Source of the DNA: an uncultured delta proteobacterium
GTDB lineage: Bacteria > Desulfobacterota > Binatia > UBA9968
Direction: 5' to 3'
Length of the DNA: 64,000 nucleotides
Assembly (NCBI GenBank): GCA_963745835.1
Contig: CAVUZH010000013.1
Coordinates: forward strand, 224,001-288,000
Shown: positions 54,551 to 61,206 of the stretch, in pieces
Layout: every line of letters starts with the position of its first letter
How positions within the stretch are numbered: the first letter of the stretch is position 1
Made by a program: the position numbers and the translations under genes
The notes under the pieces: generated by a model
Told to the model about the DNA's origin: nothing
Database searches by the model: none
The model's input: only the letters and a program-made list of their open reading frames with translations

Positions 54551-55510
54551 ATGGCGAAACTGAAGCTCACGATGGCCTGCGATAGATACGACTATCTCCA
54601 GCCTTTGCGCGAGGGCCAGGTCGAAGTCGAGGGCATCGATCTCAACCTGATCACGGTTGAAAGCGGCATTCGCCATGAGCGAATGTTCCGATACGGCGAG
54701 TACGATGCCTGTGAGTTCTCAATGTCTTCCTATCTGGTCGCGCGCGGCCGAGACGTGGATTGGTTGCAAGCCATTCCGTTTTTTCCGCGCCGCATGTGGG
54801 GGCACAAATTCTGCTTCATTCGCTCCGGTTCCGGGATCAAGAAGCCCGCGGATCTAAAAGGCGGCCGCATCGGTTTGCGCAGCTATGAAAACACCCTCGC
54901 CCTGGTCACCAAAGGCATGCTGATGAACAGCTACGATCTGTCGGTCACCGATGTCACCTGGGTAATTGTCAACAAAGAACACGTTGGTTTTAAACTTCCG
55001 CCGAACATCAAAGTGGAATTCGTCGACGGCCAACGGAAACTGGAAGATTTATTGGTTGAGGGCAAGGTCGATGCGGAGGTTGAACCGGATTTACCGCAGC
55101 GCTGGATTCGCGACGAAGGAAGCATCGAACGGCTGTTTCCGGAATTCGAAAAAGAGGAGAAAGAGTACTATCAGCGGACCAAGGTTTTCCCGATCATGCA
55201 CCCGATTGTCATCAAGAAAGAAATCCTCGACAGCGATCCCTGGGTGGCCACCAGCCTCTACGAAGCATTTGTGGCGTCACGTCAAGCGTACAACGAGTTT
55301 ATGGAGCAACCGCACCGGCTCAGTTTTGCCTGGGCACGCTCGTATTTGGAAGAAGAACGGAAGTTTTTCGGTAAAGACCCTTTTTATCAGGGCTTCAGAG
55401 AAAACCATCACGACGTGCAGAATTTGATTAAGTTTGCCGGCCAGCAGGGCATGCTCGGCCGTCAATTGACTGTTGAAGAGTTGTTTGCTGAGAACACCCA
55501 CGGCACATGA
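54551..55510 (+). CDS. 4,5-dihydroxyphthalate decarboxylase-like / periplasmic-binding-fold protein
   Basis: LTMACDRYD, YDACEFSMSSY, AIPFFPRR, FPIMH; no signal peptide. Confidence 0.8.
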   Translation: MAKLKLTMACDRYDYLQPLREGQVEVEGIDLNLITVESGIRHERMFRYGEYDACEFSMSSYLVARGRDVDWLQAIPFFPRRMWGHKFCFIRSGSGIKKPADLKGGRIGLRSYENTLALVTKGMLMNSYDLSVTDVTWVIVNKEHVGFKLPPNIKVEFVDGQRKLEDLLVEGKVDAEVEPDLPQRWIRDEGSIERLFPEFEKEEKEYYQRTKVFPIMHPIVIKKEILDSDPWVATSLYEAFVASRQAYNEFMEQPHRLSFAWARSYLEEERKFFGKDPFYQGFRENHHDVQNLIKFAGQQGMLGRQLTVEELFAENTHGT

Positions 55511-55601
55511 TGGCATCGTCATAGTGATAAAAGAAGATTCCGGGCGCTCGCTTTTTCGGATTAAATTTTTGTGAATAGCACAGTTGAGAGAGGAGACTAA
55601 G

Positions 55602-56705
55602 ATGGCTGAGTATCGAATTATCGATGCGGACGGGCACGTCATGGAGCTTGACAGCGAGCTGCGCGAATTCATCGGCCCACCCTACAAAGATCTGGAATGG
55701 CATCAGAGCTATTCCTTTTGGCCAGGCCTCACCATGGACGGCTACTTGCGTTCGTTGCGTCAGAAAGGCGGCTGGGCCGGCGGCGGCGACGGCCCGAAGG
55801 CAAATCACTGGCTCGACTTTCTCGACAAGAACAAGATTGAGCTGACGGTTCTTTACCCGACTCAGGGGCTCACTCACGGAGCGATCCAGGATAGAGACTG
55901 GGCCATTTGCATGGCGAGAGCCTACAACGACTGGCTCTATCACAAATTCATGGCAGTGAGCCCACGCCTCGTCGGCGTTGCGCTTTTGCCGATACAAGAT
56001 ATCGCCGAAGCGGTTAAGGAATTGCGCCGTTGCGTTAACGACCTCGGCATGGTCGGCGCCGTGCTGCCTGCTGTCGCTCCTGCCGGCCGGCTTTACAGCG
56101 GTCCTGAATTTTACCCGCTATGGGAAGAAGCGCAGAGGCTGGACGTACCGGTTTCGACTCACGGCGGCCTAAGCATGCCGTCGCTGGGCCTCGATATGGT
56201 GAACAATTTCACCATCGGACACACACTGGAACATCCGTTCGCCCAGATTCGCCAGTTCACCGCCTTGATGTTCGAAGGAGTTTTCGAGCTGTTCCCAAAC
56301 TTCCGCTTCGGCTGCATTGAATGCGGCGTCGGCTGGGTGCCTTACATGATGGACCGAATGGACGAGGAACAGGAGCGTAAAGGTCACTATTCGCCGCGGT
56401 GCAAAATGAAACCCAGCGAGTACGTCAAGAAAGGAAATATCTTCTTCGCCGTCGAAGTCGAAGAGTCGGCGCTACCGCTGGCCGCGCAAGTCGCCAATGA
56501 CAATGCGCTCATCTGGGCTTCCGATTATCCGCACGAACGCGATCAGCGCGACTTCAGCCAGGACATTCCGAATTTAATTAACCGCAAAGATGTCAGCGAT
56601 GAGCTCAAGCGCAAAATCTTTTGGGACAATCCGTTGAGATTCTACCCGCGGTTGAAGGAACGCGTGGAGAACGCTCAGTTATCAAAGAAAGCTGCCAGCG
56701 CATAA
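55602..56705 (+). CDS. Amidohydrolase_2 family protein
   Basis: IIDADGH, VLYPT, AYNDWL, ECGVGW, ASDYPH. Confidence 0.9.
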   Translation: MAEYRIIDADGHVMELDSELREFIGPPYKDLEWHQSYSFWPGLTMDGYLRSLRQKGGWAGGGDGPKANHWLDFLDKNKIELTVLYPTQGLTHGAIQDRDWAICMARAYNDWLYHKFMAVSPRLVGVALLPIQDIAEAVKELRRCVNDLGMVGAVLPAVAPAGRLYSGPEFYPLWEEAQRLDVPVSTHGGLSMPSLGLDMVNNFTIGHTLEHPFAQIRQFTALMFEGVFELFPNFRFGCIECGVGWVPYMMDRMDEEQERKGHYSPRCKMKPSEYVKKGNIFFAVEVEESALPLAAQVANDNALIWASDYPHERDQRDFSQDIPNLINRKDVSDELKRKIFWDNPLRFYPRLKERVENAQLSKKAASA

Positions 56706-56790
56706 TTCACAGTCGGATAATGGCATTCCGATGATACATGATTACGTTTAGCCCAAAATGCGCTAGACCGGGCTCGATAAAGAACAGTTT

Positions 56791-57546
56791 ATGAACCAGG
56801 ACGAATTCATCGCCGAATTGTGGGGCTATGCCGCGGAGGTTCCCACCGAGCAGCACCCATGGTTCGACGGAATCATCAAGCACCGCTGGAGTAAGGAGCA
56901 AATTATCCTCGGCGAAGTGCAGCACTATCTGCGCGTCCGCACCAACCCGATCTTCTTTGGCTATATGGCGGTCAACGCCGTATCCGCCAAAGAGTATGCG
57001 GTGATGGACACGGTTCTGGAAAATTTCATGGAAGAGCTGGGCGGTAAACGCACGCACATGGATATCATGCTGCAATTCCTCGAGGAAGGCGGCATCTCAC
57101 GGCAGGAAGCGGACAACGCCGAGCCGGCGCCGGGAACCATGGCGGCGATCGAAATGATCATCGGCTGCTGCCAAAGACGTTCGGCGTTGGAAGGAGTGGC
57201 CATGCTCGCCTTCGTTGAAAGCCAACTCGGAGGCGCGGGCAAGGTCTCCGAAAAGGTCTATCGTGAATTGACCGAGCACTATGGCTTCTCGGCCCGCGCC
57301 GCGGAAACATATCGGCTGCACGCCGCGCAAGACGAGGGACACGGCAGCCGCCAGATCGATGCGATTCGCTTGCTAGCCAATAATAGTGAAACTCAAGACA
57401 AAGTACGCGCGGCAGTGAAGCTTGGCGTGACGGCTTTCACTCTGGAATGGGACGGCCATGTTCAGGCAATGACCGGCAAAAGAGAATTCTGGGGCGGGGT
57501 CGCCGATGTAAAGCTGCGGCAACCAAAGGTCAAGTTAGCAAAGTAG
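56791..57546 (+). CDS. Heme-oxygenase-like diiron enzyme (CADD/PqqC/TenA-like)
   Basis: HPWF, EELGGKRTH, VESQ, LHAAQDEGH ligand pattern. Confidence 0.82.
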   Translation: MNQDEFIAELWGYAAEVPTEQHPWFDGIIKHRWSKEQIILGEVQHYLRVRTNPIFFGYMAVNAVSAKEYAVMDTVLENFMEELGGKRTHMDIMLQFLEEGGISRQEADNAEPAPGTMAAIEMIIGCCQRRSALEGVAMLAFVESQLGGAGKVSEKVYRELTEHYGFSARAAETYRLHAAQDEGHGSRQIDAIRLLANNSETQDKVRAAVKLGVTAFTLEWDGHVQAMTGKREFWGGVADVKLRQPKVKLAK

Positions 57547-57662
57547 TCTTGAACTTTTTCCTAATGCTTGTTGGTCGCCGAGTTATTCGTTTTTAGGAAC
57601 CTAGATATAGGCTTCGCGGGTATGACCTAACGACAGTCGAAACCGAAAACCCGACACCCGCA

Positions 57663-57884
57663 TCACACCGGCCAATCCTGTGGTAATTCCCGACGCAATT
57701 TCTGATACTCCGGGTTGTCGGTTTGCTCGCGCCGCAGGCGAGCCAAGGCCTCAATGATTTCCTTTTGAACTAACTTAAGCGAATTGGAGACCATGCCCGT
57801 GGTCTCTTCGAAGCCGAGGCCTCAATTGCTGTATCAGCCGCTCATGCGGGTCAGGATATAAAGATCCTTTTCTTTTCTCGTCAT
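57663..57884 (-). CDS. Putative novel 73-aa selenoprotein with two Sec (U17, U21)
   Basis: MTRKEKDLYILTRMSG-U-YSN-U-GLGFEETTGMVSNSLKLVQKEIIEALARLRREQTDNPEYQKLRRELPQDWPV*. TGAs at 57834-57836 and 57822-57824; GGGTGA RBS; SECIS-like hairpin; absent from the ORF track. Confidence 0.65.
57787..57806 (-). promoter_or_regulatory. Candidate SECIS hairpin
   Basis: GAGACCA-CGGGCA-TGGTCTC, a perfect 7-bp stem with a G-rich loop; extendable by CGAA/TTCG past a CAA bulge. Confidence 0.6.
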
Positions 57885-57895
57885 TGCATCACCCG

Positions 57896-58312
57896 TCAAT
57901 TCGGAACACCGGAGAACCCAACTTGCTGCACGGTGATCGACTCAGTTGTCGTCTGCGGCTGTCCTTGTTCATTAACCATTATCCGTAGTCGCACGAAAAA
58001 TCTCCACTGATTTTCCTGCCAGCTCACGAGCAGAATCAAGAATGCATTATCGACTATGGTATTCGGCGGTTCCTCACAAGCGACGGCGAGATCGAGAATG
58101 AAATGGTCTTGCGCTGCGACTTTTAACGGTGGCCCAAACTTGAGTTCCTCAGCCTTGAATTTTCCATGCGGCACCCGCACGGAAAGCAGGCTCATCGGTG
58201 TTTCGGTCATGTTTCGCACCCGCCATTTGAACAACCACCGCCCCGGGTCCTTACTCGTGCCGCACTCAGCCTGCTCAACTTCAATCTTCGGCCCCCCATT
58301 CTCCCCACTCAT
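57896..58312 (-). CDS. Hypothetical beta-rich (Ig-like?) protein
   Basis: Clear ORF (WRVRN, RVPHGKF, DNAFLIL, QVGFS); stop 11 nt upstream of the putative selenoprotein ATG. Confidence 0.72.
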   Translation of the reverse strand: MSGENGGPKIEVEQAECGTSKDPGRWLFKWRVRNMTETPMSLLSVRVPHGKFKAEELKFGPPLKVAAQDHFILDLAVACEEPPNTIVDNAFLILLVSWQENQWRFFVRLRIMVNEQGQPQTTTESITVQQVGFSGVPN

Positions 58313-58364
58313 TACGGTTGAACCAAGCGTTAGCTGGAACACTGGAACATTTGGAACGCCGTGA

Positions 58365-59384
58365 TCAAGGTTTTAATTTTCCTTCCGCTCTTAGCTCCTG
58401 CTGAGCTAGCTTGAGAATTCGATCGTTGACCACGCGGTCCAAAGTGAAATTCTTGTCCACCAAGCCGGCGCGAATGTCCTCATCGAGCATTTGCTGGAGG
58501 CCTGCTGTGGCAATGGACAGGTCCGAAGTAAGGCCGGGCGCATAGAGATCCCAGGCGGCGCTGACGATGTCCGACTCGCCCTGCAAGCCTGCCTCGTATC
58601 CCGACTTGATCGCTTCCTGCTTGTTGAACTTGGCGAGATTGATTCCTTGTATATAGGCCTTGAGCATACGCTTGCTGGTCTCGGGAAACTTCTCCAGCAT
58701 CTCATTGCGGGTTACCAGAATGTTTTGCGGAATACCTAAGGACTCGCTCATATTGCTGATGACAGAATAGCCTGCCTTGATGAGCCGAACGCCGTCTTCT
58801 GTGGAAAACGGCGCTGCAGCGATGATCCCCTTTTCGATTGCCGCCGCCCGCAAAACCGTGCCGCCAACCGCGCGCAGCACCACGTCTTTGTCGGGATTGA
58901 TGTTGTTCTTTTTGAGGAAGGCTTTCATGGCAAACTCGGAATACGTTCCTGCGCCGGTTACCCCAACGATCTTGCCTCTGAGATCTTCCACGCTGCGCGT
59001 CTGCTTGTTACCAAGCAAAATGTAATTCGTTGTGCTCGAAGTGCATCCAATGATAGCCAAATCCAAACCGCGCGCTTTACTGCGAAAAACTGCCTGAGCG
59101 CCGCCGATGGCCGCAAAATCCACTTCACCGGAAACCAGAGCGGCAATCGCCGCCGGACCGCCACGGATGAGAATCGGTTCGACTTGGAGCCCCTGCTGCT
59201 TGAAGAATCCGCGCGCTAGCGCTGTCCGAAACGGGATCTCGCTATTCCACGCCAGGCTGACGAAAACCATGCGGAGGTTCTTCTTTTCTTGCGCGAGAGC
59301 CGCCAAAGGCTGTGCCAGCATAAACAAGACAACCAATGTTAAGCAGAGCGGGCCGACATAGTGGGAGAGGGTTGGAAGCTTCAT
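58365..59384 (-). CDS. NitT/TauT-type substrate-binding protein (no adjacent permease)
   Basis: Signal peptide, RGFFKQQGL, AALVSGEVDF, DLRGKIVGV. Confidence 0.9.
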   Translation of the reverse strand: MKLPTLSHYVGPLCLTLVVLFMLAQPLAALAQEKKNLRMVFVSLAWNSEIPFRTALARGFFKQQGLQVEPILIRGGPAAIAALVSGEVDFAAIGGAQAVFRSKARGLDLAIIGCTSSTTNYILLGNKQTRSVEDLRGKIVGVTGAGTYSEFAMKAFLKKNNINPDKDVVLRAVGGTVLRAAAIEKGIIAAAPFSTEDGVRLIKAGYSVISNMSESLGIPQNILVTRNEMLEKFPETSKRMLKAYIQGINLAKFNKQEAIKSGYEAGLQGESDIVSAAWDLYAPGLTSDLSIATAGLQQMLDEDIRAGLVDKNFTLDRVVNDRILKLAQQELRAEGKLKP

Positions 59385-59463
59385 TCAGGCGTCTTCCTTT
59401 CCTGAGCGCTGCTGGCACCAGGTGAACTATTGAACGGCTTGAATTTTGAACACCTAAGCACGT

Positions 59464-59931
59464 TTATCTTATCGCGTATACTGAAGTACGGCCTTGCTTG
59501 TCAAAACTGATTACGTCGTAGGCTGCGGATTGGCTCCTTCCATTCCCGGTGAGCCAACCGGCATGCCGGGCACCGCCAGACCCGCCACGGCCGGCCTTTC
59601 TTTGAGCAGGCGACGAATAAGATCTGCCGGCACATGGCCTTCAATCACATAGCTTTGAACCAGCGCGGTATGACACGAATAGAGTTTCTCCGGTACGTTG
59701 TATTTCATTTTAACGTCTCCGAGTTGCTTGCCCGTGACGTCCTTCTTTTCGATTCTAAAACCATTCGATTGCGGGTGCCCAACCACGCTGAACAGCATCC
59801 TCAGCCGGGATCCTGATGACCGTGATCGATGTTGTCGCGGATTTCGGTTGCGCATAGCTGGCCGCGCCGCTCATGAACAGGAAGAGGAAAATAGTGGCAT
59901 ACCGCCAGCAAAACGAGTTCCTTAAAGGCAT
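59464..59931 (-). pseudogene. DUF411 family metal-binding protein, three 1-nt deletions, with TGA at the first Cys of CGCC
   Basis: Reconstruction: signal peptide...ITV[fs]QDPG-U-GCCSAWL[fs]HPQSNGF...SCHTALVQSYVIEGHVPADLI...GLAVPGMPVGSPGMEG[fs]YDVISFDKQGRTSVYAIR*. Confidence 0.82.
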
Positions 59932-60075
59932 TAATCTTCTCCTGACCTATAGAGGTGATGCCTCAAATTACCAGATAGCGTAGGTGCGGCAAGCGCAATA
60001 TGCGTGACGCGCGTTGACACTGAAGCTGGGACTGCGGTACCGATAAATTAGCGGATTTGCTGAAAGAGGTGGTTC

Positions 60076-61206
60076 ATGAAAAATGGTTTCAAGATTCTCG
60101 ACAGCGATATGCATTTGATGGAGCCAGTGGATCTATGGGAACGCTATATCGATGCGAAGTTCAAGGCTGATGCGCCGCGCGGCCTGACCAGCGATAACGT
60201 TCGCGATTTACGCATGGCGCACCCGGACGGCCGCTACTGGGGATTACCGGCAAGCCACAATCGTAACTCATCGCACCATCGAGGCCACAACTTCAGAAAA
60301 AACCAGACTATCTATAGATCGCATGCCGAGCGTGGCTGGACTGCGGACGTTCAGCTCGAGGCGATGGACATCGAAGGCATCGATGTCGCAGTGCTTTACC
60401 CGACGCGTGCGCTGCAGGTCCTGAGCGAACCTAGAATGGAACCGAAGTTCGCCGCCGCTTTGGCGCGGGCCTACAACGATTGGCTTTACGATTTCTGTAA
60501 AACCAACCCATCCCGGCTTCTCGGCGCCGGCATGATATCGCCTTTCGACATCGATGAAGCCGTCGCCGAAGCCAAACGCTGTGCGACCGAACTCGGTTTT
60601 CGCGCGGTTTTCATGCGCTCAAGCATCATGGAGGGACGAAACTGGTTTGACGAATACTTCGAGCCGCTGTGGGCGACGTTAGAAGAGTATGAACTGCCGG
60701 TCGGCTTTCACGAGTCGTCCTCGTCTGCGGCACGGCAGACTGGTGACTTTTTTGAACCGAATTTCATGCTCCGGCGAGCCGTCGCTCAACCGATGGAGCA
60801 GATGCTCGGCCTAGTGAGCCTATGCTCCGGCGGAGTCTTGGCGCGCCATCCCAAGCTGCGGGCCGCGTTTCTGGAAGCGAATTGCACGTGGCTGCCGTGG
60901 CTGTTGTGGCGTCTGGACGAAGGTTGGGAGCGCGAGGGCGATATCTGGGCGCAAGACTTGACCATGAAACCGAGCGAGTACTTCAAGAGACAATGCTTCG
61001 TATCGGTGGAGCCCGACGAGGATGGCGTCAAGTACGTAATCGATTACATCGGCACCGGGCGGCTGGTATTCTCCACGGACTACCCCCATGGAGATTCCAA
61101 ATTTCCAGATGCAGTCGAAACTTTCCTCGATCTGCCGATCACCGATAACGACAAACGTAAAATTCTTTGGGACAACTGCGCTGAGTTCTATCGTCTCGGT
61201 GCATAG
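60076..61206 (+). CDS. Amidohydrolase_2 family protein
   Basis: ILDSDMHLMEP, VLYPT, EANCTW, STDYPHGD. Confidence 0.9.
   Translation: MKNGFKILDSDMHLMEPVDLWERYIDAKFKADAPRGLTSDNVRDLRMAHPDGRYWGLPASHNRNSSHHRGHNFRKNQTIYRSHAERGWTADVQLEAMDIEGIDVAVLYPTRALQVLSEPRMEPKFAAALARAYNDWLYDFCKTNPSRLLGAGMISPFDIDEAVAEAKRCATELGFRAVFMRSSIMEGRNWFDEYFEPLWATLEEYELPVGFHESSSSAARQTGDFFEPNFMLRRAVAQPMEQMLGLVSLCSGGVLARHPKLRAAFLEANCTWLPWLLWRLDEGWEREGDIWAQDLTMKPSEYFKRQCFVSVEPDEDGVKYVIDYIGTGRLVFSTDYPHGDSKFPDAVETFLDLPITDNDKRKILWDNCAEFYRLGA

Follow-up and report, generated by a model that had tools for sequence, protein, structure and literature searches.

The locus and its reading frame

The stretch of DNA considered here (the window, 64,000 nucleotides of contig CAVUZH010000013.1, assembly GCA_963745835.1) comes from an uncultured delta proteobacterium of the class Binatia. 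It contains, on the reverse strand, a short reading frame whose sole interruptions are TGA triplets at codons 17 and 21. This frame is interpreted below as the gene for a selenoprotein with two selenocysteine (Sec) residues, and is referred to as the two-Sec gene. Its coordinates are collected in Table 1, with those of its RNA features and flanking genes.

The ATG of the two-Sec gene lies 11 nt past the stop codon of the upstream gene (57898-57896). Translated with TGA as U, the frame yields 73 residues, with the motif G-U-x-x-N-U-G. A first-pass annotation, made from the sequence by itself, had described the coordinates, the ribosome-binding site, the two TGAs, the 73-residue translation, and a perfect stem and its spacing from the TGAs; each detail was checked in the sequence and all were correct. 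The absence of Cys from the protein, also remarked upon there, was confirmed in the translation.

Table 1. Features of the two-Sec locus in the window
Feature	Position	Strand	Remarks
Two-Sec protein, 73 aa, coding sequence	57663..57884	(-)	ATG 57884-57882; terminator TGA 57665-57663
UGA1, predicted Sec17	57834..57836	(-)	in-frame TGA, codon 17
UGA2, predicted Sec21	57822..57824	(-)	in-frame TGA, codon 21
Shine-Dalgarno-like GGGTGA	57889..57894	(-)	4 nt 5′ of ATG 57884
Hairpin A, UGAGGC / loop CUCG / GCUUCG	57809..57824	(-)	5′ arm begins with UGA2 itself
Hairpin B, SECIS-like (selenocysteine insertion sequence), GAGACCA / loop CGGGCA / UGGUCUC	57787..57806	(-)	arms 57806-57800 and 57793-57787; loop 57799-57794
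Upstream gene, 137-aa beta-sandwich protein	57896..58309	(-)	ATG 58309; longest open reading frame from GTG 58342
Heme-oxygenase-like predicted dimetal oxidase (Haem_oxygenas_2 / TENA-PQQC / CADD-like)	56791..57546	(+)	convergent

It was expected that gene callers would report at most the tail of such a protein, and the databases bear this out. Among 70 matches to the two-Sec protein, 68 are C-terminal pieces of 43-52 aa. The tail in the window begins at an internal ATG (57794, sequence MVSN), which sits in the loop of hairpin B. The two other matches are full-length, with Trp at each TGA. One of these also has Trp at its own terminal TGA, and the contigs from which they derive are short (955 and 1130 nt); both are for these reasons read as artefacts of gene calling with genetic code 4.

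Conservation of the frame and of the TGA codons

A six-frame search covered 61 genomes of the same order as the window genome. The full-length frame with both in-frame TGAs was found at 50 places in 49 of these genomes, with E values from 9e-44 to 4.8e-14; in the remaining 12, the best match reached only E 0.14. When two unpublished genomes (G012 and G018) are left aside the carriers number 47 of 59, and no claim made here rests on those two alone. Forty-nine of the 50 places were read. In every one of them both internal stops are TGA and stand four codons apart. The terminator of the same frame, in comparison, is TGA in 18 loci, TAG in 22 and TAA in 9. Because the terminator drifts among all three triplets, TGA is an ordinary stop codon in these organisms, and it is fixed as TGA only at the two internal sites. 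The aligned ATG is found in the relatives and, judged by eye and uncounted, most of them have a purine-rich stretch (of the GGAGG, GGAG or AGGGA kind) in the preceding 20 nt. One locus (L007, genome G006) has a frameshift near the 3′ end of the gene that replaces the last ~11 residues; the matching 52-aa tail in the databases is entry P0070.

The search was also carried out at the level of species, with one genome for each of 185,579 species. It returned 231 matching stretches, 214 of which encode a relative, and the best 80 were kept. These comprise 78 loci with TGA at both positions (U/U), one with TGT at both (C/C, locus L109) and one with TGC at UGA1 and TGA at UGA2 (C/U, locus L112); the last is near-identical to a U/U locus (L126). 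According to the record titles, the relatives are mostly metagenome-assembled genomes (MAGs) of Candidatus Binatia or 'Deltaproteobacteria', with some from Syntrophobacteraceae, Chloroflexota and others. TGA is present at UGA1 in 97, and at UGA2 in 98, of 99 non-redundant loci. At a greater distance, a sample of 301 genomes drawn evenly from the phylum contained a single member of the family, that of the window itself, and none outside its order, compared with the 49 carriers among 61 genomes within the order. The metagenome runs that hold the stretch are from soil, rhizosphere and a winery.

In the twelve codons ahead of UGA1 the ratio of non-synonymous to synonymous differences (pN/pS, uncorrected, over 98 non-redundant sequences) comes to 0.455; in the forty codons at the C-terminal end, past the hairpin block, it is 0.463. 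The similarity of these values indicates that the part before the TGAs evolves as coding sequence. Coding-type conservation upstream of and across both TGAs, which had been put forward as a check on the selenoprotein interpretation, is therefore what the relatives display.

Cysteine-containing homologues

A profile built from the Sec forms alone was run against 1.84 billion representative sequences and gave 124 matches, of which 28 were fetched. Twenty-two of those fetched are Cys forms, five are tails with read-on and one is an odd call. The Cys forms are about 71 aa long (or are cut or extended at the N-terminus) and have C-x3-C at the aligned place. In the joint alignment of Sec and Cys forms there are no gaps across the motif, and C/U, C/U, F, T, M, L, R, P and P are invariant; the block EETTGMVSN is invariant in the TGA forms only. 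Comparison of the Sec-form profile with the Cys-form profile by hhalign gave 99.8% (E 2.8e-29, 73 columns). Homologues with Cys aligned to the TGAs, a second check that had been proposed, were thus found both among bacterial relatives (L109 and L112) and among the profile matches.

A profile search of 5.8 billion proteins identified 793 members of the family. Among the best 120 of these, 16 name an organism: 14 are Thermoplasmata archaeon MAGs, one is Sulfodiicoccus acidiphilus and one is a Chloroflexi entry, the latter being the C/C form. The organism-named Cys homologues in this set are thus nearly all archaeal, and they are ~30-40% identical to the window protein. Among full-length 'bacterial' entries, U and C are both lacking only in those with Trp at the TGA positions. 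Judged by these alignments, the window protein is the predicted Sec member of a family that has no name and in which the Cys members (C-x3-C, ~71 aa) come mostly from archaea.

The archaeal C-x3-C proteins of 71 aa, among them P0241 of Sulfodiicoccus acidiphilus and numerous entries from Thermoplasmata MAGs, are all labelled 'hypothetical'. They share with the window protein its full length and the same invariant residues. They differ from it in having Cys for Sec and F for W in the C-terminal motif. In them the block FE.T..MV, compared at the protein level, gives no sign of the nucleotide-level hairpin constraint described in the next section.

Conserved hairpins at and after the second UGA

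Bacterial SECIS elements have a G-containing apical loop 16-37 nt 3′ of the UGA. Hairpin B is such a G-containing apical stem-loop situated shortly 3′ of a UGA: it starts 15 nt past UGA2 and 27 nt past UGA1, and the G residues of its loop are 24-26 nt past UGA2 and 36-38 nt past UGA1. For the 86-nt stretch the folding energy is -29.1 kcal/mol (z = -2.57), and only 1 of 200 shuffled sequences was as stable. This result, together with the recurrence of the two-TGA frame in 49 of 61 genomes, indicates that the observation is more than chance. Hairpin B was present in the minimum free energy fold of 96 of 99 sequences.

In the 99 non-redundant loci, synonymous sites of the codons that follow UGA2 are fixed: GGC (84/84), CTC (88%), GGC (87/87), TTC (97/99), GAG (99/99), ACC (99/99), ACG (81/81) and GTC (97/98). 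Conserved Leu, Arg and Pro residues elsewhere in the gene, in comparison, are encoded by 4-6 codons. Synonymous divergence is 0.19 in the hairpin block (codons 5-16, on the scale that numbers the twelve before UGA1 as -12 to -1) versus 0.64-0.68 elsewhere. It is apparent that codons are frozen in both stems and free in both loops: the loop of hairpin A occurs as 18 different tetramers, and that of hairpin B is CGGGNA, with N free. Over 87 distinct rows, 94.9% of cells are paired in hairpin A, 99.8% in hairpin B and 97.4% in both, compared with 27-55% when the 3′ partners are slid. One-sided G-U/A-U changes number 14 + 14; the stem of hairpin A is otherwise fixed, with 14 one-sided changes from G-U to A-U. 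Locus L109 (C/C) lacks hairpin A, and its hairpin B shows the only stem change of the set, to a G-U pair.

The base between hairpins A and B (57807, A or G; column 39 of alignment A6) and the base that follows hairpin B (57786; column 60) do not pair as G-C in any of the 87 distinct rows, when ~13 would be expected from the column frequencies, and extension of the stem at these positions is possible in only four rows (two A-T and two G-T). This could reflect selection against a longer hairpin B, or shared ancestry.

The same genome has two fdhA-like Sec sites, with stems of 6-7 bp and GGUCU loops 12 nt past the UGA. Hairpin B resembles these sites, and fdhF-type SECIS elements (as in E. coli), in having a stem of 6-7 bp and a G-rich apical loop within the coding region shortly 3′ of the UGA. 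The two-Sec gene differs from that type in possessing an additional conserved hairpin that holds the second UGA, and in an element common to two UGAs. One fdhA-like gene (G000 contig C18:417030-419831, L224) itself has two in-frame TGAs. Its canonical ...ARL-U-HSSS... site has the GGUCU-loop hairpin, and the other TGA is 46 codons earlier (KTNQ-TGA-EGRV). In selD of the window genome, the UGA is in the 5′ arm of one hairpin, and a second, GUU-loop hairpin lies 25 nt downstream of the UGA, a layout that resembles that of hairpins A and B.

The position of the hairpins suggests another interpretation, in which only the 43-aa MVSN tail is protein and the upstream part is a leader, either a short open reading frame or an RNA ending at UGA1, that senses selenium or SelB and so controls the tail. 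The tail alone is what gene callers find, and an RNA switch is conceivable, since the hairpins are just before or across the MVSN ATG. Such a leader, however, would not be expected to match the tail in pN/pS, to align residue by residue in its encoded N-terminal part with uninterrupted Cys forms, or to have Cys codons in place of its TGAs, as in L109 and L112. The purine-rich stretch seen by eye ahead of the aligned ATG in most relatives also speaks against it. This interpretation is considered to be improbable in the extreme.

Selenocysteine machinery

A genuine selenoprotein gene would be expected to reside in a genome with Sec machinery. A tRNA-Sec gene (74.2 bits, anticodon TCA) was found on the same contig, ~78 kb from the two-Sec gene, and selA, selB and selD occur together on another contig (G000 C22:65710-70161, loci L029-L032). 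The selD gene itself has an in-frame TGA and is thus a selenoprotein gene. A search for the SelB wing domain detected it in 57 of the 61 relatives; of the 49 carriers, 46 have it. It was not found in the genomes that hold L109 (C/C), L112 (C/U) and one U/U locus, L141, whose completeness is not given.

It was also considered whether the UGAs are read through without selenocysteine, by near-cognate insertion of Trp or Cys or by way of a variant genetic code. The two database entries with Trp at both positions could be taken in this sense, as could the carrier genomes without a SelB match. These Trp entries, however, are taken as code-4 calls, for the reasons given above. TGA terminates the two-Sec gene in 18 of 49 loci and also ends the upstream gene, the aligned residue in homologues is Cys and never Trp, and the full Sec machinery is present in the genome. 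Read-through of this kind is, accordingly, thought highly improbable.

The first-pass annotation had also listed outcomes that would speak against a selenoprotein, and none of these was observed. Homology is not confined to the region after MVSN, as the homologues are full-length; the TGAs are never replaced by TAA or TAG; Trp, far from being found in all relatives, occurs in just the two entries discussed above; and the Sec machinery is not lacking.

RNA-library contigs from three studies cover the region, and the TGAs are unchanged in these relatives. Both TGAs are covered by X15 record 1 (57578-57837, with 1 difference) and X18 record 13 (57667-57870); X17 record 9 (57785-57903) covers both as well and also includes the ATG.

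Predicted structure

An AlphaFold2 model of the two-Sec protein (47 sequences) had a mean predicted local distance difference test score (pLDDT) of 91.2 and consists of four helices (residues 3-21, 25-36, 40-53 and 58-66) with no strand. Residues 17 and 21 would thus be separated by a single turn at the C-terminus of helix 1. A thioredoxin-fold redox selenoprotein (alpha/beta, with UxxC or CxxU) was considered as a candidate; the all-helical model and the U-x3-U motif do not agree with it. Beyond the pair itself, no His or Cys is conserved in the alignment of the bacterial protein.

Searches with the Sec protein gave no match in Pfam and a single row in NCBIfam (SMC, E 0.055), and only chance rows were obtained for the Cys forms in both databases and for the two-Sec protein against PDB by sequence. 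Foldseek of the model against PDB returned nothing at E <= 0.001, and scores in the ESM Atlas were 0.77, below the noise level. In a wide structure search with VIA the highest score was that of a designed protein (Z 8.8), and the best natural matches were helix-turn-helix (HTH) domains (SorC, sigma region 4, LysR, MntR and DeoR), with Z of 5.4-6.1; by the tool's own note, helical models reach Z < 8 by chance, the arrangement being common.

Neighbouring genes and possible function

Neighbouring genes were compared over the 99 non-redundant bacterial loci and over 80 metagenome loci of Cys forms, of archaeal type. In the bacteria, 77 of the 99 loci have an upstream neighbour on the same strand, at a median gap of 39 nt, that encodes a conserved protein of ~138 aa. 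The 137-aa protein of the window had no Pfam or NCBIfam match. Its AlphaFold2 model (pLDDT 94.1) is an eight-strand beta sandwich, for which Foldseek returned generic matches only (ApaG and ASF1, template modelling score < 0.45). A relationship to Ta0938 was tried and rejected (hhalign 0.9%).

A convergent heme-oxygenase-like gene is present in 90 of the 99 bacterial loci. The window's copy has matches in Pfam (PF14518 and PF03070) to Haem_oxygenas_2 (1.7e-17) and TENA/PQQC (5.6e-10), and, below the cut-off, to the CADD family TIGR04305 (1.5e-16). Archaeal Cys-form genes likewise have a heme-oxygenase-like gene adjoining them, in this case on the same strand and ~25 nt downstream (73 of 80 loci), followed in the same operon by a Ta0938-family gene (PF11494; solved relative PDB 2fqh; 61 of 80); no beta-sandwich partner was found there. 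The solved relatives of the archaeal oxidase are 4lqx (E 1.5e-112), followed by CADD (1rcw) and 4-aminobenzoate synthase (8va9). In both bacterial and archaeal neighbours the columns E, H, E, H, E, D and H (3-His/4-carboxylate) are invariant, which fits the ligand sets 3H/3C or 3H/4C given for the heme-oxygenase-like oxidase superfamily in passages of PMC13108848, and is as expected of dimetal oxidases.

The archaeal oxidases (L145-L217) have an N-terminal extension of ~70 residues, MTKCPxC...H...H, with a weak match to zf-C2H2_9 (8.1e-05, below the cut-off); the bacterial neighbour does not have it. Elsewhere in the vicinity (54551-61206) the window contains two Amidohydro_2 genes (55584-56705 and 60076-61206), two genes for NMT1/THI5-like binding proteins (54551-55510 and 58365-59384) and one for a DUF411 protein (59511-59855). 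A set of Amidohydro_2 and NMT1/THI5-like genes beside a TenA-like fold presumably recalls the gene sets of thiamin-pyrimidine salvage.

Because heme-oxygenase-like oxidase genes adjoin in bacteria and in archaea, a redox or metal accessory role is proposed. The protein would act as a diselenol/diselenide (in archaea, dithiol/disulfide) accessory protein of the neighbouring dimetal oxidase, and would either provide the dimetal site with reducing equivalents or give it protection. The linkage is a suggestive clue to function. That the protein is a partner of the oxidase or of the beta-sandwich protein has, in our estimation, an even chance of being correct, and a redox function, as opposed to metal handling or regulation, is put forward more tentatively.

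Two other functions were weighed against redox. In the first, the selenolate or thiolate pair would be a ligand for a metal, or for a bridging cluster if the protein forms a homodimer, and the protein would serve the oxidase, whose dimetal site is labile, as a metallochaperone. Some of the known double-Sec families, with UxxU or CU motifs, are predicted to bind metal (Table 1 of PMC13188914), and the cofactor of the oxidase superfamily is described as labile in passages of PMC13108848. In the archaea, the Ta0938-family protein of the operon weakly matches a TRASH domain (E 0.0023, below the cut-off), and the N-terminal extension of the oxidase contains CxxC...H. On chemical grounds, however, we reason that two soft ligands are poorly suited to Fe/Mn carboxylate-histidine sites, and the bacterial protein, as noted above, offers no other conserved His or Cys. 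A metallochaperone is thus regarded as rather doubtful.

In the second, the protein would be a small HTH DNA-binding regulator, in which U-x3-U or C-x3-C would sense redox state or a metal and thereby control the adjacent genes. HTH domains are indeed the closest structural matches among natural proteins, and in archaea the gene is the first of its operon. Those matches, however, are in the range that helical models reach by chance, nothing was obtained from Foldseek at its threshold, and no HTH family was matched in Pfam or NCBIfam. In the bacteria, moreover, the gene is convergent with that of the oxidase, not divergent from it. A regulator of this type is considered unlikely.

Evaluation of the evidence and proposed mechanism

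Several observations weigh against the interpretation developed here, some with respect to the RNA element and others with respect to function. No compensatory change was found in either hairpin (0 of 14 pairs), and the stems hardly vary. The covarying hairpin anticipated by the first-pass annotation was therefore not borne out; an invariant hairpin under strong synonymous constraint was found instead, an outcome that is neutral as regards the selenoprotein itself. Support for the hairpin structure comes from this constraint and from thermodynamics, and not from covariation. Apart from one chance row (snoZ30, E 5.1), Rfam gave no match. Hairpin B has the loop CGGGNA, unlike the GGUCU loop of the genome's own fdhA-like sites, and its spacings of 15 and 27 nt differ from the 12 nt found there. 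No SelB match was obtained in three carrier genomes (G007, G032 and G045; completeness 96, 86 and 81%). The RNA-library contigs prove neither transcription nor translation.

As to the oxidase, the bacterial and archaeal neighbours are not orthologues (24% identity). With an archaeal neighbour as a single query, 11 other paralogues of the genome score, and the window's neighbour fails to reach E 0.001. The genome holds 17 matches to a mixed profile (A8) made from 21 archaeal neighbours and the window's own neighbour. That A8 ranks the window's neighbour first was disregarded, since the profile contains that very sequence; orthology was rejected, because the clean single-protein query missed it. 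The low identity, the scores of the paralogues and the number of A8 matches place the link between bacterial and archaeal oxidases at the level of the superfamily only. Being convergent, the bacterial oxidase gene is not in one operon with the two-Sec gene. Finally, passages of a review from 2026 (PMC13108848) state that those oxidases of the superfamily that have so far been studied need no protein effector, and name one redox partner, MboB. As the redox partner of the heme-oxygenase-like MboA, MboB would be a precedent for a dedicated partner, the likeness being one of proposed role alone. A complex prediction for an archaeal Cys form and its oxidase neighbour scored 0.00, which gives no verdict either way. 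Four of the 17 A8 matches are clustered within 5 kb on contig C16 (77500-82748).

Conservation of the TGAs, pN/pS, the Cys homologues, the synonymous constraint and the Sec machinery strongly support the selenoprotein first suspected from the sequence. Taken together, they make a genuine selenoprotein gene the best explanation overall, with a probability that we put at roughly 85%. It is very probable that the product is a real Sec-containing protein, although Sec insertion itself is something that we infer.

In the proposed mechanism, translation would start at ATG 57884, UGA at codons 17 and 21 would be decoded as selenocysteine via SelB and tRNA-Sec, and synthesis would end at the TGA at 57665-57663. 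The element bound by SelB is most likely hairpin B. The arrangement 9 nt / hairpin A / 2 nt / hairpin B leads us to suggest, as a hypothesis for the roles of the two hairpins, that a single SECIS (hairpin B) serves both UGAs and that hairpin A is a collapsible spacer. During decoding of UGA1 hairpin A would be folded, leaving 9 + 2 = 11 unpaired nt between that codon and hairpin B; during decoding of UGA2 it would be melted, leaving 15 nt. Decoding through a collapsible spacer by one hairpin, combined with a Sec-x3-Sec helix as a dedicated oxidase partner common to bacteria (as Sec) and archaea (as Cys), is a more speculative proposal, and would be somewhat surprising if correct in all its parts.

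Relationship to known selenoproteins and significance

A May 2026 review (PMC13188914) lists in its Table 1 the motifs of 119 prokaryotic selenoprotein families. None of these has U-x3-U, and the string 'uxxxu' has 0 occurrences in the article. Literature linking selenoproteins with Binatota was sought and none was found; an earlier mention of the family in other lists is possible. The first-pass annotation knew of no selenoprotein family with this sequence, and Pfam, NCBIfam and the 119-family table agree. The two-Sec protein thus represents a very probable selenoprotein family that is absent from these three inventories and common in one order of soil bacteria.

The nearest predicted double-Sec families in the same table are the metal-binding NF041115 (UxxU), the FmdB-family TIGR02605 (UxxU) and TsoB, NF045694 (UxxxxU). 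Like the two-Sec gene, these have two close in-frame UGAs, presumably with one downstream hairpin, and Sec is aligned with Cys in relatives. The window protein differs from them in its U-x3-U spacing and has no sequence match to those models. It is also set apart from double-Sec families by its all-alpha four-helix model, which is not thioredoxin-like, rhodanese or zinc-ribbon.

Outside the prokaryotic selenoproteins, SelL is a eukaryotic UxxU diselenide protein of thioredoxin-like fold, and twin CX3C proteins (such as the small Tims) have two motifs on two helices, with both Cys of a motif on one helix face. In these, as in the two-Sec protein, the pair is close enough for a diselenide or disulfide; unlike the twin CX3C proteins, the two-Sec protein has a single motif.

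Current selenoprotein finders, according to passages of PMC12013277, rely on Cys homologues among the top matches. That nearly all named Cys homologues of this family are archaeal, with ~30-40% identity, may explain its absence from the lists that were checked. The gene is annotated everywhere as a 43-aa hypothetical tail, which reveals a gap in current methods. As a family, it adds a non-thioredoxin, all-helical scaffold with U-x3-U, and thereby a natural system in which diselenide or selenolate chemistry can be tested on a helix. Its two UGAs and two hairpins constitute a compact natural experiment on the reach of SelB, and its linkage to the oxidase offers a lead on how heme-oxygenase-like oxidases are reduced or metallated in cells.

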